Virus record (IMG/VR): IMGVR_UViG_3300048576_000022
Span: 1 to 39,782 of that record
DNA from: a virus
Lineage: Duplodnaviria; Caudoviricetes
DNA length: 39,782 bases
Strand: one strand, 5' to 3'
Shown here piece after piece: positions 2,752 through 33,165 of this stretch; the stretch's first letter is position 1, and each line of letters starts with the position of its first letter. The notes below the pieces were generated by a model that was given only the letters and a program-made list of their open reading frames with translations, had not been told where the DNA came from and ran no database searches. Both the position numbers and the translations under genes were made by a program.

Positions 2752-3381
2752 TCACTTTGCACCTCCGTTTGCCTCAAAAACAGCTTTTGCGAATCCGGGC
2801 GGGGTCTCACTCCTAAAGTCGGCCCTGTCATCAGACGGCGAAGCGAGCCAGATCTTTTCGGTTACTCCCGCTGGCTGCTCATTGTGGATCGGAGCAGGCA
2901 TCCGAAATCCATTTCCGGTCCATAAGCACGTCTTTTTTGTCCACAGATCTCCGTATTGCCACGGCTGAAAAATGTAATCCGGTTTGCGGCGGTGCGATGA
3001 CAAACGCCCCACCGGATTTTCCAACATGTAAGGGAAGCCTCCAAACGTGAACGCGACCTCAACAGAGTCGAAAAGCTGAAGCGCATCCGCGAGCATCCAT
3101 CCGGCTTTCTTTTTGTGGTCTCTCGCTCCGCTCACGCACAGGTGAGTGCAAGGCGTGAACCCAAATCCGATCTTAACGCGGCCGCGTGCTGACTCTGGTA
3201 GCCTCCACGATCTACAGTCACCCCAGACGTAGTGAATCAGGCCAGCGCCGACAGCTTCCGTCCTGTCCCTGCGGATTGAGTGCTGAACGTCAACACACCA
3301 GCATTCATACCCAGCCTCAGCCCACGGGCGAACCATGTTCCCGGTGCGGTCGCAAATTGAAATGACAACATCAGGGCTCAC
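2752..3381 (-). CDS. Short phage DNA cytosine methyltransferase-like protein
   Basis: FTPCTHLCVSGAR (catalytic PC), MLENPVG (ENV-like motif VI), FQPWQYGD..TKKTCLW, RSETPPGFAKAVF. Confidence 0.8.
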   Translation of the reverse strand: MSPDVVISICDRTGNMVRPWAEAGYECWCVDVQHSIRRDRTEAVGAGLIHYVWGDCRSWRLPESARGRVKIGFGFTPCTHLCVSGARDHKKKAGWMLADALQLFDSVEVAFTFGGFPYMLENPVGRLSSHRRKPDYIFQPWQYGDLWTKKTCLWTGNGFRMPAPIHNEQPAGVTEKIWLASPSDDRADFRSETPPGFAKAVFEANGGAK

Positions 3382-4257: not shown

Positions 4258-4340
4258 ATTTCACTACACATCAACAACTTACGCAGAATCTGAAAAATAG
4301 TTCTGGACTGAGCGCAACGTTGCGCTAGAATGGCGACATG
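4258..4340 (+). promoter_or_regulatory. Duplicated promoter module, copy 1 (IHF-like site, -35, palindromic operator, -10, leaderless ATG)
   Basis: ATCAAcaacTTA 4270-4281; TGGACT 4304-4309; palindrome AGCGCAACGTTGCGCT 4311-4326; TAGAAT 4326-4331; ATG 6 nt later. Confidence 0.8.
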
Positions 4341-4667
4341 GTGAAACTTACAAAGCAAACAAGTCGCGGTGAAGCGGTGATCGAAGTAAGCAACGGAACA
4401 GCTTATGTCTCGCTGAATGGTCAGCAAATCGGAACGAGCGGCATGGTTAACAGGACAAAGCCGTTCGGCCCCGGCAATGCTTATGTCGGTGGAATCTGCA
4501 AGATCGCACTAACGGAATCCGAAGCCTCGGAAGTCGAGAGAATGCTCAAGGCCCGCGACTTCAACGAGGAAGAAGTATCCAGCAAAGACTCACGCGCTAA
4601 ATACATTCAAGTGATGCGCGAAGTCCACGGCAATGTGAACCAGTTTGCGAAAGGCGGGGCGCTGTAA
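4338..4667 (+). CDS. Hypothetical early protein
   Basis: 109-aa ORF starting directly at promoter copy 1. Confidence 0.75.
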   Translation: MVKLTKQTSRGEAVIEVSNGTAYVSLNGQQIGTSGMVNRTKPFGPGNAYVGGICKIALTESEASEVERMLKARDFNEEEVSSKDSRAKYIQVMREVHGNVNQFAKGGAL

Positions 4668-4688
4668 ATCAACAACCCACACAATAAT

Positions 4689-4943
4689 ATGAAAACCAAA
4701 GACCAAATCACAACTCAGATCGCAGGCGGAATCTTTGTCTGTTGGGTGATAGGTAGTCAGGCTCGCGACGGGTTCATCCACGAGGACATAACGCTCGACT
4801 TTCGGCAGGACTTCAAAACCAAGGCCGATGCCGAAGCGTGGGGAGTGAATCGAGCGGCTGAACTCAAGAGTAATACGAGCTTCCCGTCTCAGATCCGCGT
4901 GGGAGTCGAGGGTGGCAGTGCCCGATGGATCACAAACATATAA
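4689..4943 (+). CDS. Hypothetical early protein
   Basis: 84-aa ORF with A/C-rich leader, in operon order. Confidence 0.7.
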   Translation: MKTKDQITTQIAGGIFVCWVIGSQARDGFIHEDITLDFRQDFKTKADAEAWGVNRAAELKSNTSFPSQIRVGVEGGSARWITNI

Positions 4944-4978
4944 CAACACCCCATAGGAGGCGGCTAACCCACAATCTG

Positions 4979-5062
4979 ATTTCACTACCCATCAACGACT
5001 TACGCAGAATCGAAAAAATACTTCTAGACTGAGCGCAACGGTTGCGCTAGGATGACGACATG
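4979..5062 (+). promoter_or_regulatory. Duplicated promoter module, copy 2
   Basis: ATCAAcgacTTA 4991-5002; TAGACT 5025-5030; AGCGCAAC-G-GTTGCGCT 5032-5048; TAGGAT 5048-5053; ATG at 5060. Confidence 0.8.
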
Positions 5063-5299
5063 ATGAATACAGAAACAAACAAAACGGAACTCGTAATCGA
5101 CTCAATCAGCAACGTATTCGGAGGCTGGGACAGTGGCTATTATGTCGAGGTATCGTATCACTACAATGTTGACGGTAGCGCCGATGGTTACACTCGTGAC
5201 AGGCTGGCGATCAACCGCGACATTGCGAACGATGCAAACGCTGTCCGTGAATACGTCGAGAGTGAACTGTCTCCGGCGGAAGCCGACTACAGCGAATAA
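5060..5299 (+). CDS. Acidic hypothetical early protein
   Basis: 79-aa D/E-rich ORF starting at promoter copy 2. Confidence 0.75.
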   Translation: MMNTETNKTELVIDSISNVFGGWDSGYYVEVSYHYNVDGSADGYTRDRLAINRDIANDANAVREYVESELSPAEADYSE

Positions 5300-5335
5300 C
5301 CACACAACCGGGAGATCCCAACAACCAACGAAAAT

Positions 5336-5536
5336 ATGAAAAACACGAAAACAATCATGCAAGAAGCCGAGAGCCTATCAGACGAGTATGAGTTTTACGC
5401 CGACGCTGAGCGACGCGGCGAGATTAGCAGGCGCGTCTATTATTCGGCCTGCTCAAAGTCTGGGTTGACGCGCAAGGAGGCAACAGAAGTCCTGCGCGAA
5501 AACTATCAGCGCGCAGGGATCGCGCATTTGTTTTAA
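5336..5536 (+). CDS. Hypothetical early protein
   Basis: 66-aa ORF with A-rich leader. Confidence 0.7.
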   Translation: MKNTKTIMQEAESLSDEYEFYADAERRGEISRRVYYSACSKSGLTRKEATEVLRENYQRAGIAHLF

Positions 5537-5558
5537 CCAAACCGACATGGATGGACGC

Positions 5559-5744
5559 ATGAACTGCCCCAACTGTAACACCCATATACCGGACGACCTG
5601 GTCCGGCGAGAAGGTGCCAGGCTCAACGGTCAGGCCGGACGCGGTAAGTCGAAGGCCCGAACCAGCGAGCAGGCGCGAAAGGCGGCTATGGCCGGAGTGC
5701 GTAAGCGGTGGGCGAAGATGAGGACGTCCGGGACGTCCAAATAA
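5559..5744 (+). CDS. Small basic protein with CxxC and a G..G.G.SKART.EQARKAA....W motif; candidate DNA-binding regulator
   Basis: MNCPNC...GQAGRGKSKARTSEQARKAAMAGVRKRWAK; last gene of the plus-strand island. Confidence 0.65.
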   Translation: MNCPNCNTHIPDDLVRREGARLNGQAGRGKSKARTSEQARKAAMAGVRKRWAKMRTSGTSK

Positions 5745-5805
5745 ACAACTAAACCAGAAATCTAGATAAAATAATAGAATGAAAGAGCGAACACGACAGA
5801 ACGAG

Positions 5806-6112
5806 CTCGCCAACATTGGTTGGCGGGGCACACAAAACGAGCGCATGCTGGCGTCGGTTGTAGACCGGCCCCACATCCCGCACGCGGTCGCCGCTGCGGG
5901 ATGCCCGCGGGAGACAACCAGGGCAGTCGCCGCCAGATTCGGGGCGACTAATTTTCGCATGGTGCGGAATGAGGACGGCGGCGCAAGGTGCGTCGCCGAC
6001 TGGCCGGCCAAATATTTGTCAGGTCACTGATCGGCAGGACGGAGTTCTGCTGCTTGTGTCCGCGCTGGTGCCTGGCAGCCCGTTGGCTGTTCCGGGTGGG
6101 ACAGCGGCACAG
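5806..6112 (+). ncRNA. Candidate large structured RNA (or ssDNA structure)
   Basis: Eight or more closely packed stem-loops with G.U pairs consistent with the plus strand (listed in findings). Confidence 0.45.
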
Positions 6113-6748
6113 TTCATACGCTTTGATTATCCGGTGAATCCGCGCAAAAGTTTCGCTAATGTTCTGCGGAGTAAAATATGTTGAGTGCCCGCCGTAGAGC
6201 CAGACGGTCTTGTATGGCATCGACGCGTCAAAATTCTGCCACCCGACGCGGCCAAGGTCGCCATAGGGCCAGGCCAACATACGGGCGAAGCGGTTGCCAA
6301 CCACGCCCAGGACTGCGTCATCGTCCGCGCAGAACGCGACTGCGCGGCGCAGCGAGCCATCCCTGATCCATTGAGCGACTCCGTTTTTCTCAACATCCGC
6401 CTCGCAGGCCGCTCCGGTGAGTATCAGACCAGCGATTCGATAGCCGCGGTCAATTAGTATCTTCGCCGTCTTCAACGCGATGACGGCGCCGTTGCTGTGA
6501 GCTACTAGCCACACCGGACAACCAGCGCGCTCGCAACATGCGTCAATGATCTCAGCCGCGAGACCGCGAGCGATCACAGGATCTTTGAGCAGGCAGTTGA
6601 TTTTCGGAAACGGCCCGGCGCGATACTCCTTCTTGATGACGAGCACTCCGGGATCACGCTTCCACATCCATGATGCCAGCTTGTCAGGCCACGAAACCGT
6701 GGTCTGCTTTGTCATGATTCCGTGAATGGCTGCTACGATGGCTCGCAT
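5948..6748 (-). CDS. Alpha/beta-hydrolase (lipase/esterase fold) at the end of the late operon
   Basis: IHGI oxyanion motif, VWLVAHSNG nucleophile elbow, DDAVL acid, GGHSTYF His; the last ~55 aa look like a read-through tail. Confidence 0.85.
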   Translation of the reverse strand: MRAIVAAIHGIMTKQTTVSWPDKLASWMWKRDPGVLVIKKEYRAGPFPKINCLLKDPVIARGLAAEIIDACCERAGCPVWLVAHSNGAVIALKTAKILIDRGYRIAGLILTGAACEADVEKNGVAQWIRDGSLRRAVAFCADDDAVLGVVGNRFARMLAWPYGDLGRVGWQNFDASMPYKTVWLYGGHSTYFTPQNISETFARIHRIIKAYELCRCPTRNSQRAARHQRGHKQQNSVLPISDLTNIWPASRRRTLRRRPHSAPCEN

Positions 6749-6749
6749 A

Positions 6750-7076
6750 TCACTTTGCCGCTGCGGCAGCTTTCAACCCAGCCTCAGTAGCTTTGCTTAC
6801 AGCCTCGGCAGTTGCGTTAATGATCGCAGCCTGAGCGGCCCCGGTGTTCGTGATGTTCTCTGGGTTCATCTTTGCTGTGAGCTTTTGCAGCTTGACTGTC
6901 ACTGTTCCATTGGTTTCAGCGCGAACCTCAAAGCCTTCCAGGTCGCTATCCTTCGGCGTTACAACCGCGAACGGCTTGCCTCCGATGCTTCCGGTGATTT
7001 TGGTTTGCGGGACAACCTTCCCTACGCAGCCGGTCATGACGAGCGCGAGAGCTGCAATAAATGCGAGTTTCTTCAT
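6750..7076 (-). CDS. Lipoprotein, possible spanin-like lysis component
   Basis: MKKLAFIAALALVMTG-C lipobox; Ala-rich C-terminal helix; lysis-cassette position. Confidence 0.7.
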   Translation of the reverse strand: MKKLAFIAALALVMTGCVGKVVPQTKITGSIGGKPFAVVTPKDSDLEGFEVRAETNGTVTVKLQKLTAKMNPENITNTGAAQAAIINATAEAVSKATEAGLKAAAAAK

Positions 7077-7092
7077 AAGTTTTCCTTTCGTA

Positions 7093-7338
7093 TCAAGGCA
7101 ACCGTTTCTTGATCGCCTCAAGTTCGGACCTGATCTCTGACAGCGCTAAATCGGTCGCGGTGAATTTACGAGATAGCCACCATGTAGCAGGAGCTACCAC
7201 ACCGATAACCGCGACGGCTGCGCCGATGGGTATATTCGTCTCTGAGTCAATGGCAGGTGCTGCTGCGGTAGCGGCTCCGCATGTTCCCGCTGTCAGAAAG
7301 ACAAATGCAAATCGCGATAAGAGTTTCTTCATCTTCAT
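7093..7338 (-). CDS. Small membrane protein, holin candidate
   Basis: Signal-like N-terminus, TM helix IPIGAAVAVIGVVAPATWWL, coiled-coil C-terminus. Confidence 0.6.
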   Translation of the reverse strand: MKMKKLLSRFAFVFLTAGTCGAATAAAPAIDSETNIPIGAAVAVIGVVAPATWWLSRKFTATDLALSEIRSELEAIKKRLP

Positions 7339-7342
7339 CGGT

Positions 7343-7657
7343 TTATTTCCTCACCCTAAACCCTGTCCTGCGGCCCAACCGGCATTCATTGCTCGGGTCA
7401 GACTCCACGCCATCCGCATCCACCGCAGTAGCGCGAAACACCCACTGGCCAGGCGCAACCTGCACCACAAACCCGCGATTCGTCCCACCGTCATTTGTCG
7501 CCAGTAGCTGCCAATCTCCACCCGGTCGAGCACCGTAGAGCCGGAACGCTGACATGCTGTCGCCCTCGTAATCATACGCGAGTGACACCGGCCTCTCCAC
7601 AGCGGCCAGCGCGGTCAGGCACAGCAGGAGGAGAATGGAGATGGTCATGTGCATCAA
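7343..7657 (-). CDS. Signal-peptide protein with fibronectin type III-like domain
   Basis: ISILLLLCLTALAA leader; VSLAYD..FRLYG...WVFRATAVDADGVESDPSNE. Confidence 0.7.
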   Translation of the reverse strand: MMHMTISILLLLCLTALAAVERPVSLAYDYEGDSMSAFRLYGARPGGDWQLLATNDGGTNRGFVVQVAPGQWVFRATAVDADGVESDPSNECRLGRRTGFRVRK

Positions 7658-8424
7658 TAAACCCCGTAGATTGAGTTAAGCTGAGCAATGACAGCAGCCT
7701 CGTTTTCTGTGGTCATGGTGCCGTTGTACCACAAAAATTTTGCCAGACCCATCGTCCCAAAATTCGCAAGGTTGTAACGCGCTCCTATTGTCAATCCTTT
7801 TTGCGCACTTGTTCCAACGTTGCCAGATGCAGCGATGACTCCATTCGTTTTCAACGTTGATGTCGCGCCAGAAAACCTCACAGAAACAATAAACCAATCT
7901 GACTCATTGACGGTACTCGTTGATTGCACCTCTAGATTACCTGCGTAGAAAGTCCATTTATCTAGCGATCCAATATATACCGCATTGCGGGCGCTATCTC
8001 CTCCACTGTCAAAAATGTAACAATTTTGTAGCGGTGGTTTTACTACCACAAATACAGTGCTGGGTTGGGTTATGGATGCGGTCGATGGGTTGCGGAGATA
8101 TGTTGATCCGCCAGCCCGGAATTGCAGCCACGGAGATCCCATGATCTCGGATGGATTATTTGTCCAGTATGGTCCAAACGCGCTGGTAAGATCGTATGCG
8201 CCAGAAGGTGACAAATCCTCAACAGAATTGATCTGCTGCCCGACTATAGCAGCGATCGCACTTGCGTCGTAATGCATCACCAGCGTTCCGTAAGATGACC
8301 AATTCACAGCGCCACTGGTAGGCGCCGGAGTAGGCCCCTGCATTGCCGGATCGAAAATGCTGAACGCCTGGCCCCACGCTGAGGCGCACGTCAACACCGT
8401 CAAGAATGTCAATATCGCCATCAT
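7654..8424 (-). CDS. Signal-peptide protein with LamG/concanavalin A-like domain
   Basis: MMAILTFLTVLTCASAWG leader; HYDAS..VEDLS, TVFVVVK, LTIGARY, E.AAVIAQLNSIYGVY pattern; ATGA overlap at 8421-8424. Confidence 0.75.
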   Translation of the reverse strand: MMAILTFLTVLTCASAWGQAFSIFDPAMQGPTPAPTSGAVNWSSYGTLVMHYDASAIAAIVGQQINSVEDLSPSGAYDLTSAFGPYWTNNPSEIMGSPWLQFRAGGSTYLRNPSTASITQPSTVFVVVKPPLQNCYIFDSGGDSARNAVYIGSLDKWTFYAGNLEVQSTSTVNESDWFIVSVRFSGATSTLKTNGVIAASGNVGTSAQKGLTIGARYNLANFGTMGLAKFLWYNGTMTTENEAAVIAQLNSIYGVY

Positions 8425-11261
8425 GGTAGTGCCCTCGAAATCGCGTTGGTGAAATTGAGCAAGCCGCCGATCGAGATCACGCGCACCCCTCCATTCGTGC
8501 AATACAGCGTCGTCCCATCCGGACACCTGGTCCCGTCAGGAAGCGCCACGGTGCAGTTGCTACCAGCCGTATTCTGCACCCACAGTTGGGCTGTTCGAAA
8601 CTCGCTCGCGTGCATGTTGCCGAAATTCCCCAGCGTCGTGTTGGTCGTGATTGACAACATGTAGATTGCATTCGCTGCCGGGTTGCTCAGATTGATCCCG
8701 CCCAAGATGGCGTTCGTCGTGGCTGGTGGCAACCTCGCAGCGTCAATCGTCCCCGTCAGGTTTGCGGCACTCACACTGCCAATAAACTCCGGAGCATGCA
8801 CGATCTGACCAACGTGCCATTCCTCTGTTGTCTCCCAAAAATCGATCCACCCGCCAGCGACCACCGATCCCGCGATTATCGGCTGCATTCGCACGATATC
8901 GTAGTCTGATGGGTCTCCGGGGTTCCAATTTGTCCATGTGAGGAATGAGTTAGCGGAATACGCTGACAGGTTGGTTAGATTTGCGCTCCCTACCTGCGGG
9001 ATAAAATCCAGCGTCGTATCCGCGATTTCCTGCCTGAGGTCCGCGATGATGTTGGTTGAGATCGAGGCCCAGTTGGTTCCGTTCGCGGTCGCAGGTTGCG
9101 GCGCAAATCCAAGCGCTGGCTCAGCCCCAACATCAGCAGCATCCAGCGTGACAGCGCCCGTGAGCCCGTTGACCGATGAGACCGCGCCTGTGCTGCCGCC
9201 TCCAATGTTATTCGTCAACCATGCGAGAGCAGCTGGAAGGCCAGTCACACCCGATATCGGGATCGCTGGGAGCCGCGCAATGTCAATCGTTCCGGTCAGG
9301 TTCGTTGCTTGCACGAGCGGGTATCGCGGCTTCATATATGGTCTCCACTGGATGATATCCAGGAAACGGCCAGGTGTGGCTGCATTGACGGTGTTTGTCA
9401 GCGGCAGAGCGGCCGTCTGATACTGATAGTGGTACCGTAGCTCACCCCCAAGTGCGCCGTTGTCGTCAAGCAGATAGCCGGGAGCCCACCAGCCTGCCAG
9501 CGAGTTCTCGATTGACAGCTCCGCGTCGATAATAGATGCGTAGTCACGAGATATCATCTGGTATTTGCAACCCTCGGCGTTGCAATTCACCATTTTCATG
9601 CTGTGCCCGCCGAAGGCCGGGTAGTATCCATACCAGCACCCATACGTTGTCACATTCTCGATGAGTGAGTGCTCCTGAAATTGGATGCCTGTGTAGAATC
9701 CACCAATGATCGTGTTGCGTGTTACCATCGATCCCCCGCCTGCATTCGAGGTGTGCGGCATCCAAATCCCGCGTGATGTTGTGTTGGTTGGCTGCGGACC
9801 CGCATACTCCTGCCAACCCGTATCCACGACCACATTTTCGATGTGCGATGTTACCGCACCAGTGAGATCCAGCGCTGTCAGTCCTGGATTCGGCACCACG
9901 CGAAAATGCAAATTGCGAATCTCCACCGTGACCGCATTGAACTTCACCGTGGAGTCTGTCGGGCTGGTATAGCTTGATGCTGTATAATTTGCGCAGTGCA
10001 TCATCCGTCCGTTTGTCGTGACGAGTGTCGACCACAGCACCGCAGCGCCTGGGACGATGCCCCACCGCTGAGACGGCACCACAGCAAATTGCCTGAGCGA
10101 AGGACTGATTGGGCCAGCCAGCTTGATTCGCGTCGAAGTCTGTCCAACCGGCGGCAGTTCGGGAAACCACAATTGCGCATTGTGATGCAGGCCGGCCCCG
10201 ACATCCCGCAGCGCACCAGCCACCATGTAGATACCCGCCGGAAAATAGAGAGTCCCGCCGCCATTTGTGCCTGTTGTATCCATACCCGCTTGGATCGGCA
10301 GCGTATCGTCTGTCCCGTAAACTGAAGTCCTGTCGAGCACTGCGCTGTAAGCCGCATCCGCTATTGTGATCGCAGTTGGACCGCTCACTGACTCAATAGT
10401 GGTTGTTAGGTTCAGACCATCGGCGCCAGCCTCAACGATTGAGATAGTTTTCCCAATATCGTTCGGCGTAAATGCCGCCGCATTAAATGTCACATACTTT
10501 GAGCCCGCTATAGTAGCTGTCTGATTCACGAGCACCCCGTCACCCTTCGCGCCAAACTGCTTTACATTCCACTCCCGCGCATCGCTGCGGAGAGTCGAGA
10601 TCACAGCGTTGCTGGCGGTGTATATCTCCGCTCGCCTGGCCGCGTCCAGTCCAGATGCAACCCCAGCCGCAGCCGTATAGGCCGCATTACTTGCGGTGTT
10701 GATCGAGGTGAGAAGCGCTGTATTGGTGTCGGATGCGATGGATACTGCAATGTTGGTTGCGGTGGTGGCGGTAACGCCGTTGGTTGGACTCGTTGCCTCC
10801 TGAGCGTCTATATATACTCGTCCGGCATTTGTTCGGTATGTCAAATTGTTACCAGCTCGAAGACCGTCCTTTGACCAGTAACGTGCATCGGCTTGCGTCT
10901 TGGTGTATCCTGTTGTTGAACCAGGAGTGGAGTTGCTTGAGACTCCGAAGTCCTCAGCACGAAATACACCGTTGGTTTCCGGAAACTCGTAGTAGCGGGT
11001 TGTCACTGTGAACGGGCCGCGCACCTGAAGAGCGTAAGCACCTTGCACCACATTCGACGCGTAGAATTTCCCATTAGTGTCGGTGATGTACTCCAGCCGG
11101 TCTGCTGTATTCAGCGCGTTGTCATTCGTGCTGGCGCCGCCCGGTAGTAGGTAGCAAGTCGCGTTCGTGATCGGAACCGAGGCGGACGTGCGAACCGTAA
11201 ACAGCGCGGTCCCGGCGTAGCAGTTGACCGATAAAAGCAGAGTTGCTAATAGGTATTTCAT
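8421..11261 (-). CDS. Tail spike/fibre-like protein with pectate-lyase-superfamily beta-helix (polysaccharide depolymerase); carries a signal peptide
   Basis: NVKQFGAKGDG, DDTLPIQAGMD, GGGTLYFPAGIY motifs; YTKTQADARY and VSSVNGLTGAVTLDAADVGA fibre motifs; MKYLLATLLLSVNCYAG leader. Confidence 0.8.
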   Translation of the reverse strand: MKYLLATLLLSVNCYAGTALFTVRTSASVPITNATCYLLPGGASTNDNALNTADRLEYITDTNGKFYASNVVQGAYALQVRGPFTVTTRYYEFPETNGVFRAEDFGVSSNSTPGSTTGYTKTQADARYWSKDGLRAGNNLTYRTNAGRVYIDAQEATSPTNGVTATTATNIAVSIASDTNTALLTSINTASNAAYTAAAGVASGLDAARRAEIYTASNAVISTLRSDAREWNVKQFGAKGDGVLVNQTATIAGSKYVTFNAAAFTPNDIGKTISIVEAGADGLNLTTTIESVSGPTAITIADAAYSAVLDRTSVYGTDDTLPIQAGMDTTGTNGGGTLYFPAGIYMVAGALRDVGAGLHHNAQLWFPELPPVGQTSTRIKLAGPISPSLRQFAVVPSQRWGIVPGAAVLWSTLVTTNGRMMHCANYTASSYTSPTDSTVKFNAVTVEIRNLHFRVVPNPGLTALDLTGAVTSHIENVVVDTGWQEYAGPQPTNTTSRGIWMPHTSNAGGGSMVTRNTIIGGFYTGIQFQEHSLIENVTTYGCWYGYYPAFGGHSMKMVNCNAEGCKYQMISRDYASIIDAELSIENSLAGWWAPGYLLDDNGALGGELRYHYQYQTAALPLTNTVNAATPGRFLDIIQWRPYMKPRYPLVQATNLTGTIDIARLPAIPISGVTGLPAALAWLTNNIGGGSTGAVSSVNGLTGAVTLDAADVGAEPALGFAPQPATANGTNWASISTNIIADLRQEIADTTLDFIPQVGSANLTNLSAYSANSFLTWTNWNPGDPSDYDIVRMQPIIAGSVVAGGWIDFWETTEEWHVGQIVHAPEFIGSVSAANLTGTIDAARLPPATTNAILGGINLSNPAANAIYMLSITTNTTLGNFGNMHASEFRTAQLWVQNTAGSNCTVALPDGTRCPDGTTLYCTNGGVRVISIGGLLNFTNAISRALP

Positions 11262-12565
11262 GGCTCCAAGAAAATCAAAACCCAGCGTGAGATAGACGCG
11301 TTGTAAATCAGCATCGCGGACCCGTCTACAGTGGTCGCGCGGTCTGCTCCTGTCATTGTCACTATTCGATTAGATGCGGTTGGGTCAACGCCGGAATCGT
11401 GCGCGATTGTCATGTTATTTCCGGTGCGGTTGACTAGGATTATAAGCTTTCCGTCGCGGTTTGGAGAAGCGTTGATGCCGTTAATCGTAAACGCTCCTGT
11501 GGGTCCAGACACATCAATAAATACGTTGGTCCCTACAGCCACGGCTGCGTTGTTTCCATTTGCTAGAGACGAGACAGCGTAGCGCGGAAAGGCTAAGTCA
11601 CCAGTGACATTGTTAGTCCCGGACAAAGTGATTGCATTAGCATTTGTGATGAACTGGCTTGGGATGTGTCCAGAGCCTAGTAACGTTGATGCATTCGCGT
11701 TTGTCGCGCCTGACACGTCTCCATTTAGTGCGGAATCGTAAAGCACTAGCGGACCTTGAATCTGGATTGACAGATCGTCTGGACTGCTAATCACAGCAGA
11801 TGTGTTTGATGTTCCAAGCCCGAAAGTGGAAGCAACCCGAATTGACTGGAACCAACCAGGCGGGTAAGTAAACACAACAGAAGGGTCATTTGTCCCGGAG
11901 TACGCGAACCCAACACCGTAGTCAGGTCCAAGCGGATTATCGTCAAACGCGAGCAACCCGCTAACTGATCCGGAGAAGTTGCCGACAAATTTGTTTGCCG
12001 CATTCGTGAGCTGCTTTATCCCGCTGACGGTCTGGTTGTTTGTCAACCCAACAAGCCGAGATACCGAAGGGGCGGCTTCGTTAATCGAGTTTGTTGACGA
12101 GTCAGATCCAACCGCCGCAACCAAAGCCGATACAACATTGGTCTGTTGCGGAGCAGCCTCTACTGTGTGCGGCAATCTGAGAGCGACAGCCGATACAACC
12201 TGATTTGTTGAAAGAGAGACCGAGCCGTAACCATCTGAAAGCGTCACGGAAAGCGGAACTCCAGGCGCAGTTTTTATGACGATTCCGTTTGTGCTACTCC
12301 GAGACAGAGACAGCCCGGTAAATGGGTTTGCGGCGAATTGCAGAAAAAGATTATCAACAGCCGACGCGATCACGCTATTCGTCGCAATCTGGGTTGCTGA
12401 ATCTGATACGCTCGCTTTCCATGTCCGCGTGATTCCGTTGACGGTAATCGTCGCATTGTTCGTTATGCTCGCCGTGTTCGTGACGGTGACAGTCGCGGTT
12501 ACAATTTCAGCAGCCGATGCCGAGAATGCCAGCAGGAAAAGAGCTATAAGAAGAAGTTTTTTCAT
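11258..12565 (-). CDS. Beta-rich tail-module protein with signal peptide
   Basis: MKKLLLIALFLLAFSASA-AE classic Sec leader; T/N/S-rich; coupled to both neighbours by ATGA overlaps. Confidence 0.75.
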   Translation of the reverse strand: MKKLLLIALFLLAFSASAAEIVTATVTVTNTASITNNATITVNGITRTWKASVSDSATQIATNSVIASAVDNLFLQFAANPFTGLSLSRSSTNGIVIKTAPGVPLSVTLSDGYGSVSLSTNQVVSAVALRLPHTVEAAPQQTNVVSALVAAVGSDSSTNSINEAAPSVSRLVGLTNNQTVSGIKQLTNAANKFVGNFSGSVSGLLAFDDNPLGPDYGVGFAYSGTNDPSVVFTYPPGWFQSIRVASTFGLGTSNTSAVISSPDDLSIQIQGPLVLYDSALNGDVSGATNANASTLLGSGHIPSQFITNANAITLSGTNNVTGDLAFPRYAVSSLANGNNAAVAVGTNVFIDVSGPTGAFTINGINASPNRDGKLIILVNRTGNNMTIAHDSGVDPTASNRIVTMTGADRATTVDGSAMLIYNASISRWVLIFLEP

Positions 12566-14721: not shown

Positions 14722-15105
14722 TCAAAGCCACTCACCAACAGTTGAGCCGATAGACAATGAAACCCAATAGCCGCCAGCGTCAGGATTTCTCGGTGGGTTG
14801 CTCGCCGCGTTTGGTTTGCTCTTAACGCACACGAAAGTACCAGAATTAGGACCGCTTCTCACAACCACAACGTCCTGCTCAGCGTAATCACCTGGATATG
14901 TCGGGCTGTATTCACCGCGAAAACTCATGCCGCCTGACCTTGGAGTTGATTGCGCTTGAGCAGCCGGTATATACTGCACTCCTCGGCTACTGACCACCAT
15001 TGATTGGTTCGGCGCGTGGCATGGGCGCTGAGCCATCAAAGTGTCGTAAACCCACTGCATGAACTCAGCCTGTGCGCCGCTGCCTGTTGGTCTTCGCGGT
15101 GTCAT
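14722..15105 (-). CDS. Tail protein with short carbohydrate-binding-like motif
   Basis: FRGEYSP...YAEQDVVVV...TFVCVK...PP....YW; ATGA overlap at 15102-15105. Confidence 0.6.
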   Translation of the reverse strand: MTPRRPTGSGAQAEFMQWVYDTLMAQRPCHAPNQSMVVSSRGVQYIPAAQAQSTPRSGGMSFRGEYSPTYPGDYAEQDVVVVRSGPNSGTFVCVKSKPNAASNPPRNPDAGGYWVSLSIGSTVGEWL

Positions 15106-15872
15106 ACAGCCTCGTAGAGAGTTGATGACCACTGCTCCAGCCAATATTCGGTTTGAATGTCAATACGCCCTTTGGCGTTGCTGCGCTCAGTCGATGCGAG
15201 CTTGCGCCATCCCCAGGAGTAGCCATCAACGGCAGTCGGAGTGTAATTCGCTTTAATGCTCAACAGTTTTGCCTTGAGTCTCCCGGGTATTGGGTTGACC
15301 CACAGGGACGCGTCAGAAGCCTCTGCAATTAGCTGGTCGAATGTGTAGAGCTTTTCGACGTTCTTGTCTGAGACGTTGGTTTGATACCTGTCCGACACGT
15401 TAGTTGTGTGCTTCAGGACAAACTGCGAAACGGCGTAGTGCGTCGTCCCGCTCTTCATCAGCTTATAAAAACTCACTGCGTTCCCGGTGAGCGGCGGGGA
15501 GATAGTCGATAACTCCGCACTCTCTTTTATGTTCGCGTTGATTGAAGATTGAACAGAGTCAGATAACTGCCGAAATTTCCAGTGCTCGCGAATGTCCTTC
15601 TGCAACTCGTTAGCGGTTATCTCCCATGTGTCTGTTACCGTCTCATCTTGCCCATCATCAGCGGACGGCGCAGATGCAACGATTGTGCCGTTTAAGCCAG
15701 GCTCGAATGTGTATTTGTAACCAAGCTTTTCGAACGATGCAGCTATTGAATAAAGCCCGTTTGGGTCTGGGCATTGCCAAACGATTTGCCGCTCGATCCC
15801 GTTTTTTGGATCATAAGTTATCCGGTCCCGCTGGCGAACTGGTGCTCGTGTGCCTGTTATGATTGTGGACAT
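15102..15872 (-). CDS. Tail protein following the tape measure (distal tail-like position)
   Basis: TAATG coupling to the tape-measure stop; synteny. Confidence 0.65.
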   Translation of the reverse strand: MSTIITGTRAPVRQRDRITYDPKNGIERQIVWQCPDPNGLYSIAASFEKLGYKYTFEPGLNGTIVASAPSADDGQDETVTDTWEITANELQKDIREHWKFRQLSDSVQSSINANIKESAELSTISPPLTGNAVSFYKLMKSGTTHYAVSQFVLKHTTNVSDRYQTNVSDKNVEKLYTFDQLIAEASDASLWVNPIPGRLKAKLLSIKANYTPTAVDGYSWGWRKLASTERSNAKGRIDIQTEYWLEQWSSTLYEAV

Positions 15873-17104
15873 TAGTATGACGTGCCCCATCCGTTGTTAG
15901 CGTTTCGAGATTGATCCTCAAGAACGCGGCGAATTTTTTTCAACTCTTCGTTGCTGGACTTTTGAATTGTTATAGTTGTGTCTTGCATCGCCGAGTAAGC
16001 ACCGATCTTTTGAAGCTCGTTTCGGCTGCCGGTGATTTGGAGTTTATTCTCCTTTTCGGCTGACTTTACTAATGCGGTGCGGTCTTGACCTAACTTCTCA
16101 AAGGCAAGTGCAGCTTCCAACTTTTGCGAGTCTGTGCCGGTCGCCATTTTCTTGCGGAGCTCTGCGCGTTCGCGGTCGATAAAAGCAATGCGCTCCGCTG
16201 TAGTCATTGACGCCAAATCCGATTGCCGTTGCTCTTCCGCCAATTTCTTTTTCAGCGTTGCAATGCGCGTTTCGATGCGTTCGCGTTCCTGGGTGGACAT
16301 GCCTTCAACCTTGGCTTGCGACTTCATGTCGACCGGAGCGCCTTCGTTTACAGGCTTCACTTTCCAGAGGAAACGGATTGCGTCGGCGTTGGCTTTGATA
16401 ACGCGACTAATAATTCCTCCTTCGTTTGCAGCCGGGCTTAGAGCATTGTCTATAATTTTGCGAACCCCGCCGCGAATCACCTGCATGTCGTCTGAAAACC
16501 TCTTATTCGACTTCACATCGGAAGCATCGTCAGCGAACGGGTCACGCGCATTCGCAAAGGCTCCGCGCTGCAATCCAGGTGTCAGGTCTTGATAGGTTTT
16601 CCCGAGCACTTTGTTGAGCGCGACAAGTTGCTCTGTTGAGAGCTTTGCGCCTTCAACGGACTTTGAAATCTCAGAGAATATCTGATCTGGAGACTTTGAC
16701 TTAATGTCGTCGACCTGCACGCCGATTGCTTTAAGCGAGTCTATCGCCTCGGCGTTTCCTGATTCGGCTTCGATTGCTGATTTTGCAATATTGCGATAGG
16801 CCGCAGTTACAGTGTCTATACTGGCCCCGGTTGTTTCAGCCGCGTATTTAAGAGCCTGGAATCGCTCAACTGATACATCGAGCTTTTGTGCTCCGTAGTC
16901 GATCTCTTTAGCCTCGTTGGCTAGCGACTCAACAAAACGCGATGCGCTCGATAGTATCGCAGTCCCTGTAAACGCGGAACCGATAGAGGTTGCGAGTTCT
17001 CTTGCGATGTTGCCGCCGCCTGCACGCGCAACGCTTTTTGCGTCTTCCATCCCGCGCTGGAATCGCGATATATCAACACCAAGAATGGCCATCAGTGACG
17101 GCAT
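15872..17104 (-). CDS. Tape measure protein (short, 410 aa)
   Basis: LGVDISRFQRGM N-terminus, QALKYAAETTGAS, KSPDQIFSEIS; helical A/K/E-rich; synteny. Confidence 0.85.
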   Translation of the reverse strand: MPSLMAILGVDISRFQRGMEDAKSVARAGGGNIARELATSIGSAFTGTAILSSASRFVESLANEAKEIDYGAQKLDVSVERFQALKYAAETTGASIDTVTAAYRNIAKSAIEAESGNAEAIDSLKAIGVQVDDIKSKSPDQIFSEISKSVEGAKLSTEQLVALNKVLGKTYQDLTPGLQRGAFANARDPFADDASDVKSNKRFSDDMQVIRGGVRKIIDNALSPAANEGGIISRVIKANADAIRFLWKVKPVNEGAPVDMKSQAKVEGMSTQERERIETRIATLKKKLAEEQRQSDLASMTTAERIAFIDRERAELRKKMATGTDSQKLEAALAFEKLGQDRTALVKSAEKENKLQITGSRNELQKIGAYSAMQDTTITIQKSSNEELKKIRRVLEDQSRNANNGWGTSY

Positions 17105-19749: not shown

Positions 19750-20166
19750 TCAGAAGCGAGCCGTCAGGGTGCCAGAAATCGAGGATGCGTCGCCAGTTGA
19801 AGCTCCGAGAGTCACCTTTGCGCGGACATAGCGAGCGGAGTTGCTCGGGATGCGCACTCGCGCGGAATATGCCGCAGCACCAGCGGAGCTTGCCCCGGCA
19901 ACCTGATCGTTCAGGATGGTTTTGGCAACAGCAGAGAAAGCCGAAGTCGTGCTAGTCTCGATGATGTAATTGACCGTCCTGGTATCGGGCACCATCGTCG
20001 CATTCAGCGCCGGAACGTCAAGTTGCAACTCGATAGAGTCTGGCTTGTAGGTATCGGCCCCGAGGTCGATGACGGCGGACTGGGTTGAGCCAGCACCGTT
20101 ATTAAGCGCGAACGCAGCGGGGTTAAGGCTTGCGTCCTGAATGTTTCTCGCAAATTCGTTAGCCAT
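19750..20166 (-). CDS. Capsid decoration/cement protein
   Basis: 138-aa beta-sandwich directly after the capsid gene; VIDLG and RYVRAKVT motifs. Confidence 0.65.
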   Translation of the reverse strand: MANEFARNIQDASLNPAAFALNNGAGSTQSAVIDLGADTYKPDSIELQLDVPALNATMVPDTRTVNYIIETSTTSAFSAVAKTILNDQVAGASSAGAAAYSARVRIPSNSARYVRAKVTLGASTGDASSISGTLTARF

Positions 20167-31401: not shown

Positions 31402-32177
31402 TTAAATACCACTCAACGTTTCCCATGCGAGCTTAACCACTGCTGGAACTTGTCCGTTTCCAATGGCTTTAAGGCGGTCCAATTGATCGGCCACCCCATC
31501 AGCCACTCTGTCCAATCCGGATTCATCCATTTTACGGTTACGGGCGCACGCATATTCTCTGAGGTTTCTGCAACCCCCGCCGTGCCCAGGAGAGAACCCT
31601 GCTTCAATTTCTCTGATTCGCGTTTCATTAGGTTTCATTACTCCATCCATCTTCGTTGGTGTTGGCCAGTAGGAACATTCTTTCGCGTGAGTGTGAGAAA
31701 CCAACGGAGCAAGCCGAAAAAACTCCCCATTTCGCATCATACCCCATCTCGGCAAAAGCACACGTGACGCTGATAAGTCCGCTTTGCAAGCAGCGGTGAG
31801 TTTTCAACGAGCGCAAAACGGGGTCGTATCTCATCAATAATTCTTCGCATCTCCCACCAGAGACCAGATCTTGAGCCTTCGAGCCCAGCGGCTCTTGAGT
31901 TTGCCGCACTAATGTCCTGACAAGGAAATCCTCCGCACACGACATCGACTTTTCCTCGCCATGGTCGCCCGTCGAATGTTCGAACGTCATCCCAGATTGG
32001 GAATTTTGGCAGGATTCCGTCTCGCTGACGTTGCAACAGGACTCTTCGGCAGTAAGGTTCAATCTCGACAGCACATACTGTGGTATGTCCGAGAAGGATT
32101 CCGCCGAGGATTCCGCCTCCTGCCCCGGCGAACAGGTGCAGCTCTCGGAGTGGTCTGTTAGGTAATGATACATCCAT
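31402..32177 (-). CDS. C5 cytosine DNA methyltransferase locus with overlapping alpha/beta frames, split into four ORFs (frameshifted; possibly a pseudogene)
   Basis: LFAGAGG, GGFPCQD, ENSP in 31737-32177; MGYDAKW..HSRERMF in 31628-32173; WPTPT and RLKAIGNGQVP in 31402-31740; MNPDWTEWLMGWP in 31413-31628. Confidence 0.85.
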
Positions 32178-32185
32178 AAGACTTT

Positions 32186-32869
32186 CTAAAGTGCCAAGAC
32201 CTCCTGCCGCAACCGCCTGGCCGCGATCTCACAGTAACGCTCTTCCAGCTCAATACCGATTGCGCGGCGTCGCAGGTCTTTCGCGGCTCGGATCGTGGCT
32301 CCAGAGCCCATGAATGGGTCGAGAATGGTTTGAGGATTATCGGCTAGCGAAATACACCATGCCATAAGCGCGACCGGCTTTTGTGTTGGGTGCAAAACCT
32401 TTTCTCCAACTTCACTGTCTCGCTGGTATCCGATCCATAAATGATGAAACATCCTTACTGACTTGAATTTTACACCACTGCACCAACAGAGTTCACAGTC
32501 TCCAAGGCTGCAATCTGCACCTCGATTGTCGCGCTTATCCCACGCGAGCCATGAGTATTTATCAGGAAGCCTACTCGCGTAGTTTTGAGCGCCCCAAAGC
32601 ATTAGTTGCGACGATACGCCAAGTAAAAACGCAGGGTCAAAAGGCTGATCGTCTCCATGAATTGACGGAAGGTGCTTTCTTGAATTCCACCCGTGCCTGC
32701 GCTTATCAAGCATGTCCGTTCTTATCCTTGTCTCAGCGTAATCAGTATCTAACCCAATGCCATACGGCGGATCAGTCAGCACAAGATCCACCTTCGGCAG
32801 CGTCGGCAGGATCTCGCGGCAGTCGCCGTGATAAATCGTGCAGTAGTCGTCCTGATAGTATGGCTTCAT
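32186..32869 (-). CDS. N6-adenine/N4-cytosine DNA methyltransferase (beta class)
   Basis: TDPPYG, HPTQKPV, ILDPFMGSG, IGIELEERYC. Confidence 0.93.
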   Translation of the reverse strand: MKPYYQDDYCTIYHGDCREILPTLPKVDLVLTDPPYGIGLDTDYAETRIRTDMLDKRRHGWNSRKHLPSIHGDDQPFDPAFLLGVSSQLMLWGAQNYASRLPDKYSWLAWDKRDNRGADCSLGDCELCWCSGVKFKSVRMFHHLWIGYQRDSEVGEKVLHPTQKPVALMAWCISLADNPQTILDPFMGSGATIRAAKDLRRRAIGIELEERYCEIAARRLRQEVLAL

Positions 32870-32871
32870 GC

Positions 32872-33165
32872 TCAAAACGGCACATCGTCATCGTTGCAAG
32901 GTTTGCTGGCTGGCCTCTCCTGCGCCGGTGGTCTCTCAGACTTGACCTGTCCTTTCCTCCTATCCGCGCTGACCTGATCCTCGAAGCGCAGGGAGGTGAA
33001 ATCTCCGCTGTTGCCCTGCCGAGTCCAGCCGGAGATTGCAAAAGCCGACTCCTTCTGGCAGCACGGGCAGGTGATTGCAGCCTTACCGCGAAAGTCCGCC
33101 TGATTGGTTCCGGGCTGCTTGTATTTATTGGCGCCTAAAGTGCCGCTGTTTGGGTAATTGCTCAT
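32872..33165 (-). CDS. Small ssDNA-binding-like protein with Zn-ribbon insert
   Basis: NSGTL...ADFRG...ISGW...SLRF, acidic tail DDDVPF; CPCC insert. Confidence 0.6.
   Translation of the reverse strand: MSNYPNSGTLGANKYKQPGTNQADFRGKAAITCPCCQKESAFAISGWTRQGNSGDFTSLRFEDQVSADRRKGQVKSERPPAQERPASKPCNDDDVPF

Follow-up and report, generated by a model that had tools for sequence, protein, structure and literature searches.

The stretch of DNA analysed here (the window, 39,782 nt) is a complete virus record that has direct terminal repeats, and its ORFs include those of a terminase, a lambda-type portal, an S49 protease, a major capsid protein and a tape-measure protein. By its portal, terminase, protease and capsid, the window phage is an HK97-type tailed phage. 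No match to an integrase was obtained with the window's ORFs, and no endolysin was found among them. On the minus strand, from 6750 to 12565, all six consecutive ORFs carry a hydrophobic N-terminal leader once their starts are corrected, as the sequence-only reading had reported (Table 1). The leader genes are translationally coupled into the late operon by start/stop overlaps. The ATGA coupling described for this run was found at the adaptor/435-aa, 435-aa/spike and spike/LamG junctions, but the LamG and Fn3-like genes overlap by TGATG instead. The proposed domain labels were borne out weakly: the spike has a pectate-lyase-like beta-helix (E 6e-8) and the next protein a LamG match, whereas the Fn3-like ORF has no Pfam match; a gene placed like this ORF in the related locus L018 matches fn3. 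For the 435-aa protein, Pfam gave a phage-depolymerase C-terminal domain (E 0.002).

Table 1. Genes in and around the run of leader-bearing ORFs, in the order of the late operon
Feature	Position	Strand	Basis and remarks
Leaderless variable tail-tip gene, 502 aa	13210..14718	-	length of the gene at this place varies across loci
Leaderless tail-tip adaptor, 206 aa	12562..13182	-	homologues next to 435-aa homologues
435-aa fibre with Sec-type leader	11258..12565	-	14 Thr-Asn and no Cys; cleavage predicted after about residue 18
Spike, 946 aa: leader, collar-type anchor (about residues 17-110), beta-helix, C-terminal domain	8421..11261	-	Pfam PF12708
LamG/concanavalin-like protein with leader, 256 aa	7654..8424	-	PF13385 E 0.005; start set by ATGA overlap
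Fn3-like small protein with leader, 103 aa	7343..7654	-	sequence
Two-segment (2-TM) membrane protein	7093..7338	-	leader ORF; holin-family genes at this position in relatives
Lipoprotein, 108 aa	6750..7076	-	lipobox LVMTG|C and ribosome-binding site in sequence
Alpha/beta hydrolase, last gene of the late operon	5948..6748	-	Pfam Hydrolase_4 E 5e-5; L012 homologue at same place

All six genes had been taken as one adhesion apparatus. Four of them (fibre, spike, LamG and Fn3-like) keep that assignment, but the membrane protein and the lipoprotein lie where relatives have holin families. Holin-family genes occupy the position of the membrane protein in L014 (PF23987, 1e-12) and, with a weak match, in L025; the window's membrane protein itself has no holin-family match. 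Moreover, lipoprotein genes are found downstream of the membrane gene in L007, L008, L012 and L017. The two-segment membrane protein is probably holin-like and outside the adhesion module, and the lipoprotein is probably a member of the lysis cassette; with both read in this way, membrane targeting is ordinary for these two proteins. The alpha/beta hydrolase is a possible lysis accessory.

Leaders were called with an in-house heuristic, a score for the uncharged hydrophobic core, not with SignalP, and this heuristic gave false calls for the 266-aa hydrolase and one spurious ORF. The score was 2.2-3.4 in five of the six leader ORFs and 1.82 in the membrane protein, and it reached at least 2.0 in one of the 45 other window ORFs (15102-15890, 2.08). 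By heuristic and conservation, the features of Sec/SPI signal peptides are present, i.e. a basic n-region, an uncharged hydrophobic core and, ahead of the mature domain, small residues at -3/-1.

Leaders are conserved in the homologues of relatives. In the 435-aa family (94 proteins from a family search, the window's own counted) 91 of 94 have a leader, and for the spike anchor the count is 135 of 146 among the matches listed. The spike-anchor profile found 1070 representatives at E<=0.001 (clusters at 50% identity, some repeat-protein matches among them), of which 150 matches were listed and, after removal of four repeat proteins, 146 were scored. Eleven of these listed relatives have no leader call: three fall under the threshold, and eight start at most 11 residues from the domain, which is too near to judge, or are truly leaderless. 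Leader sequences diverge within the 435-aa family, and the mature domain begins in register right after the small-residue site; the end of the leader coincides with the boundary of the folded domain. No leader was called for the adaptor in 21 locus copies or in 53 database homologues. Across 16 syntenic loci, a leader was called in 30/32 post-adaptor ORFs of at least 300 aa versus 1/93 core tail ORFs, and one of the two post-adaptor ORFs without a call has its leader hidden behind a too-early start. (L009, a duplicate of L008, was left out of the 16 loci and kept in the adaptor locus count.)

Within the window, the claim that such leaders are absent from head and upstream tail proteins is correct; it fails for some of the relatives, six of which carry a leader on a small gene of the head/neck region, and one of these, L024, also on an anchor gene in the neck region. 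Homology of the relatives' leader-bearing head-region genes to the window's leaderless gene at 19750-20166 was not shown (hhalign probability 0.4%), and there were no PDB sequence matches.

The dipeptide Thr-Asn (TN) is in excess in both large fibre proteins of the window, with 14 occurrences versus 4.1 expected in the 435-aa protein and 22 versus 7.7 in the spike (p=0.0002 each, by shuffles), and it is encoded there by varied codons. Across the 435-aa and spike-anchor families the observed/expected ratio (O/E) of TN is 2.7 and 3.0, the sequences within a family being related so that pooled counts are not independent; Asn-Thr stays below 1 and Ser-Asn at 0.6-1.0. TN exceeds its expected count in 103 of the 104 distal spike regions, and in the phage families Pro shows a depletion of about threefold at the residue after T-N. 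Known glycosylation sites likewise have few Pro at the following residue. No TN excess was seen in ten core proteins of the window, and O/E is 0.71 in the adaptor, 0.79 in core tail ORFs and 0.98 in 21 large ORFs that have no leader; these are similar in Asn/Thr content and come from four loci with the C-terminal domain in common. Three leaderless anchor-domain proteins have 6 TN versus 10.9 expected. The LamG protein of the window has no excess (2 versus 1.4), and one leader-bearing 435-aa homologue has none either (3 versus 3.4).

Homologues of the 435-aa protein lie in two Verrucomicrobiia/Verrucomicrobiae genomes and in one Terriglobia bin, whose contig with the homologue may be mis-binned. 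Judged by these relatives, the probable host of the window phage belongs to Verrucomicrobiia, and many of its relatives likely infect Verrucomicrobia too. The capsid's only GenBank phage match is Akkermansia phage Chantilly (31%), in which the 16 structural-region genes examined gave no leader call and no TN excess; cultured relatives of either fibre were not found by tblastn in 50,697 phage records. Leader-bearing proteins of the two Verrucomicrobiia genomes have TN O/E of 1.80 and 1.83, and those of the Terriglobia bin 0.87 (24 proteins in 293 kb). In G001 (800 kb of 5.9 Mb), Thr-Asn is the top-enriched dipeptide in 71 leader-bearing proteins (404 versus 224), with an O/E of 1.07 in Asn-poor proteins without leader call; in G002 (211 kb), the value of 1.83 comes from 22 leader-bearing proteins, with 1.34 in the Asn-poor class. 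Host proteins without leader call also reach 1.5-1.8, mostly Asn-rich ones that resemble missed secreted proteins. The TN excess common to the fibres and to secreted proteins of the host group suggests that the fibres evolved to resemble the host secretome, and gives independent support for export. Export of the fibre and spike proteins, as proposed before, is thus strongly supported at the sequence level by leader conservation and by the secretome-type Thr-Asn bias, and we consider Sec export and leader cleavage of these proteins to be very probable.

Disulfide folding as a general reason for export was rejected, since after residue 25 no more than one Cys is present in 69 of the 94 proteins of the 435-aa family (the window's 435-aa protein has 0). 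The 946-aa spike carries 8 Cys, so that disulfide bonds could be why it is exported, with no glycan involved. Glycosylation at N-X-S/T by PglB/STT3 was also rejected, because there is no sequon excess (spike 17 versus 11.8, p=0.06; 435-aa protein 10 versus 8.3). STT3 (PF02516) matched in 0/3 genomes, two of them fragmented bins and none the proven host. GT-C genes of the PMT_2 type are present in the three genomes (7, 7 and 4), and also in 9 of 14 controls. Thr-Asn could mark an extracytoplasmic modification by the host, a reading that we put forward tentatively; that this modification is glycosylation, most likely by a GT-C-type enzyme, is our best guess.

Predicted structures bear on whether the exported proteins are parts of the particle. 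The 435-aa model (mean pLDDT 77) is confident at both ends. Its N-domain (19-128) matches a sheath domain (Z 10.7), T7-like tail proteins (9.2, 8.7 and 7.8) and T4 gp11 (7.5), and the same fold is also found in flagellin and FliD (Z 6.4). The C-domain (325-435) matches tailspike, capsid-spike and baseplate domains at Z 8.6-6.3, among them the C-terminus of a depolymerase tailspike (8.1), a capsid spike (7.7), a protein of the baseplate (7.3) and residues 79-179 of CBA120 TSP4 (6.4); the same C-domain is present in four further phage loci (L026-L029), there in proteins that lack a leader. The mature N-domain of the spike (model pLDDT 77) is a transthyretin-like anchor whose top folds are the A-1(L) cyanophage neck fibre (Z 10.2), Ur-lambda gpStfN (9.3) and the XM1 neck protein (8.9), with non-phage domains following at 8.8 and 8.7, within 1-2 Z units. 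Foldseek gave no match to this anchor at E<=0.001, and there was no HMM match to PDB sequences. In host genomes both domains are rare: among 401 genomes of the host class only 2 have the spike anchor, and among 401 of the host order 6 have the full 435-aa N-domain, five times in a phage-like context and once on a 3.6-kb contig. Hence, being rare and phage-linked, they are not ordinary host surface domains.

In most related loci the immediate upstream neighbour of the 435-aa homologue is an adaptor homologue, and we propose the adaptor as the putative docking site of the exported 435-aa fibre. Its look-alikes in the Atlas are phage proteins; for the adaptor family, neither a PDB match nor a common PHROG family was obtained (one unnamed family each for 2 of 20 members), and the label 'BppU-like' is not claimed for it. 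The gene at the 502-aa position has a length between about 230 and about 1000 aa, depending on the locus, and the 502-aa protein has no family match and no usable fold match. This gene may be a candidate for a primary (basal) tip built in the cytoplasm; if it is, the exported parts are possibly side fibres and not the whole receptor-binding apparatus. The leaderless 502-aa protein could also account for all receptor binding.

Export to the outside of the cytoplasm leaves room for proteins that never join the particle and instead strip or mask capsule and receptors, from the periplasm, at the cell surface or after release, with superinfection exclusion, escape or decoys as the outcome. Such a role would suit the polysaccharide-lyase-like beta-helix of the spike, the stand-alone leader-bearing enzymes found here in relatives (GH27 in L031, GDSL in L010), a small exported L013 gene that ends in an FYRL-like motif as host secreted C-termini do, and the presence of a leaderless tip candidate. 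However, the collar-type anchor is retained on highly variable spikes, the genes keep a fixed post-adaptor position with translational coupling, and the exported proteins have no membrane anchor and no YadA-anchor match. The GH27 of L030 is fused to the anchor. Moreover, a leaderless copy of the anchor domain closes the otherwise ordinary tail module of a prophage (G312, E 9e-13), which ties the domain to tails, and an integrated satellite-like element of about 9.5 kb in G001 combines an integrase, a capsid gene, a leader-bearing 435-aa homologue and a tape-measure homologue, a retention best understood if the 435-aa protein is a particle part. For the fibre and spike we therefore regard export without attachment as unlikely; it may hold for the anchorless LamG and Fn3 proteins. 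With the modelled folds and gene context taken together as indirect support, the exported fibre and spike proteins probably attach to the particle, and for export and attachment as one joint claim our confidence is moderate.

The strong hydrophobic cores would also allow uncleaved signal-anchors, which would tether the fibres to the inner membrane so that tails are finished there, or so that fibres are freed at lysis like SAR endolysins; in L031 a putative major capsid gene also begins with a hydrophobic extension. The h-regions are short, though, and small -3/-1 residues fall exactly at the start of the conserved domain across many unrelated leaders, while the Thr-Asn bias would still indicate an extracytoplasmic location. 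We consider this improbable. The genes could instead serve a lysogen, as lysogenic-conversion morons or trimeric autotransporter-like adhesins sited in the tail region, of which lom and Eib are named examples. Relatives are prophages (L031), and many 435-aa homologues have YadA-head repeats (PF05658), which are absent from the window's 435-aa protein. Set against this, the window is a virus record with terminal repeats and no integrase found, its leader genes are coupled into the late operon by overlapping start and stop codons, promoter-like sites are at chance level (11 versus 9.9), and the position is fixed across loci and not sporadic. There is no C-terminal beta-barrel either: the last 110 residues of the 435-aa protein are modelled as a tailspike-like beta-sandwich without anchor-family match, and a role in the lysogen appears very improbable. 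That the leaders are vestiges of captured host domains, with a downstream start giving ordinary cytoplasmic fibres, is scarcely credible despite a few leaderless relatives (P0135, P0219 and L173), since in both large genes of the window no Met falls between the leader and the domain, ATGA coupling fixes the translation start upstream of the leader, and leaders are kept in >90% of divergent relatives.

Attachment of exported fibres to the particle, the reading that we prefer, can be compared with several known systems. According to the Ur-lambda study (PMC12617516), twelve copies of gpStfN form the side-fibre collar and wild-type lambda does without side fibres, so that such fibres are add-ons; like the spike gene, the gpStf gene lies at the end of a siphovirus tail operon, and gpStf is an accessory fibre on a collar, as proposed for the spike. 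The spike may resemble Ur-lambda gpStf (PDB 9E7M chain Ta, 94 residues, the length of gpStfN) in a predicted six-strand N-domain plus helix, the Z of 9.3 corresponding to an rmsd of 2.8 with 89 aligned. It differs from gpStf in its export leader, its beta-helix and its Thr-Asn excess, and it has no sequence match to PDB. Lambda Stf is not known to carry a leader and is made in the cytoplasm.

Virion proteins with Sec-type leaders are known from Ff phage, whose pIII and pVIII, according to PMC4823517, have type I signal sequences, are Sec-dependent and let fused domains fold in the periplasm. The proposed fibres share leaders of this kind; the Ff proteins, however, stay membrane-anchored and are added during extrusion (PMC4823517), whereas the exported proteins of the window have no downstream membrane anchor. 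Bdellovibrio MAT fibres have a similar build but, as described in PMC10769870, are chromosomal and displayed on the cell surface, which sets them apart.

Cultured tailed phages with leader-bearing fibre or spike genes, as in the window phage, are also on record. Tunturiibacter phage Tunturi_1 (PP887698) has six consecutive leader-bearing fibre/spike genes, gp12-gp17, and the four large ones among their proteins are Cys-rich (10-31 Cys). The annotation of Burkholderia phage Bcep781 gp49 (AF543311.2) reads 'possible tail fiber; possible signal peptide domain'. Unlike the window's proteins, those of both phages are Cys-rich (14 Cys in gp49), have no Thr-Asn excess and do not match the window's anchor profiles. 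Tunturi_1 is a podovirus and Bcep781 a myovirus. Cys-rich (Tunturi_1) and Thr-Asn-rich versions are seemingly independent, which suggests that phages export fibres to exploit the maturation chemistry of the host periplasm. The main text of the Tunturi paper makes no mention of signal peptides (PMC11924767). For sugar-modified structural proteins of tailed phages there is a precedent in mycobacteriophages, where glycosyltransferases modify capsids as well as tail tubes (Freeman et al. 2023, via the review PMC10877033); the review's passage on them describes no export step, and the glycosylation considered here is our inference.

In the route that we propose, fibre and spike proteins would be translated from the late operon and exported by Sec with cleavage of their leaders, and would then be modified and trimerised in the periplasm of the probable Verrucomicrobiia host. 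Modification by the host at Thr-Asn may be the reason for export, the 435-aa members being mostly Cys-poor. Holin-type lysis would mix the compartments, and the exported parts would then attach to tails already complete: the 946-aa spike as a collar of the lambda-Stf type, the 435-aa fibre by docking on the adaptor, which has no leader. Late addition of side fibres is plausible because wild-type lambda lives without them, and P22 tailspikes, as a precedent, attach to heads in vitro. Much more doubtful is the widest form of the proposal, in which fibres, spikes and some head-decoration proteins would be Sec-exported, Thr-Asn-glycosylated and snapped at lysis onto particles built in the cytoplasm, those of satellites included.

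Tailed phages are held to complete their assembly in the cytoplasm. The conserved leaders and the secretome-like Thr-Asn excess indicate that the host-recognition parts of the window phage and of many relatives likely mature outside it. A literature search, with most subscription journals outside its coverage, returned no description of exported tailed-phage fibres, nor of a Verrucomicrobia motif of Thr-Asn type. If exported parts were added in a last step of assembly, this would be a route new for tailed phages, the parts themselves being known folds, and the family concerned is large, as judged by its 1070 anchor clusters with some repeat-protein matches included. Moreover, the Thr-Asn bias suggests that soil-type Verrucomicrobiia modify proteins in a way not yet studied. 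If the widest form of the proposal is true, a large family of Verrucomicrobia phages would bear glycoprotein spikes in the style of enveloped viruses without an envelope, the Sec route would let the phage recruit secreted carbohydrate-active domains of the host as receptor-binding tips, and Thr-Asn would be a previously unnoticed motif, found as a mark on proteins that the host itself secretes as well.

Small leader-bearing genes rich in the dipeptide Thr-Asn were found in the head/neck region of six related phage or prophage loci, where the capsid gene directly precedes most of them, and Thr-Asn occurs 35 times in the six genes against 11.5 expected. The window gene at 19750-20166, which was paired with this set by position and not by homology, has no leader and is Thr-Asn-poor, as are its 20 examined family members (7 vs 19 expected). 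The six small genes are candidates for exported head decorations. In one of these loci, L031, the putative major capsid gene (470-1570) starts with ∼40 hydrophobic residues, which resemble two membrane segments.

Coordinates of features in the window and in related loci
Feature	Coordinates	Setting or match
Small leader-bearing, Thr-Asn-rich gene	L005:4624-5118	head/neck region
Small leader-bearing, Thr-Asn-rich gene	L006:1783-2229	head/neck region
Small leader-bearing, Thr-Asn-rich gene	L012:1541-2155	head/neck region
Small leader-bearing, Thr-Asn-rich gene	L021:2976-3431	head/neck region
Small leader-bearing, Thr-Asn-rich gene	L024:995-1642	head/neck region
Small leader-bearing, Thr-Asn-rich gene	L031:1926-2378	head/neck region
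GH27 alpha-galactosidase	L030:5859-8342	fused to spike anchor
GH27 alpha-galactosidase	L031:11446-14210	separate leader-bearing gene behind short anchor gene
Alpha/beta hydrolase	window 5948-6748	last late-operon gene, behind lipoprotein
Three DNA methyltransferase-like genes	window 2752-3381, 31628-32173, 32186-32875	phrog_757, PF00145 (weak), PF01555
Cluster of short ORFs	window 4338-6030	A-rich; plus strand, opposite to rest of genome
Integrated element, ∼9.5 kb	L032:3721-12759	G001:C1 about 2,314,500-2,323,600

The GH27 family is common to L030, as an anchor fusion, and L031, as a stand-alone gene, and a host secreted enzyme was possibly captured here as a spike tip. The late operon of L012, like that of the window, ends with an alpha/beta hydrolase after the lipoprotein; the window itself yielded no endolysin, and its hydrolase might be an envelope-lysis esterase. 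The short plus-strand ORFs are probably early genes. Between the head and tail genes of L004 (180-3558), our impression is of glycosyltransferase- and sulfotransferase-type enzymes.

The element integrated in G001, a genome of the probable host group, carries an integrase, HTH genes, a capsid gene (PF05065, 6e-32), a leader-bearing homologue of the 435-aa fibre and a tape-measure homologue, and we read a further gene as terminase-small-like. No portal, large terminase or tube was seen among its plus-strand ORFs. Judged from gene content, it looks like a capsid-forming satellite carrying its own fibre and tape measure.

In chromosomal stretches of G001 and G002 (L033-L072 and L093-L112), Thr-Asn was the top enriched dipeptide of the G001 leader-bearing proteins, with equal enrichment in those of G002, and many of the Thr-Asn-richest G001 proteins have an FYR-like motif at the C-terminal end. 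Thr-Asn possibly marks a site, so far undescribed, at which secreted host proteins are modified. A small phage gene with a leader call (L013:13249-13692) ends in a FYRL-like motif, as in host secreted proteins, and its product may be handled by the outer sorting route of the host.
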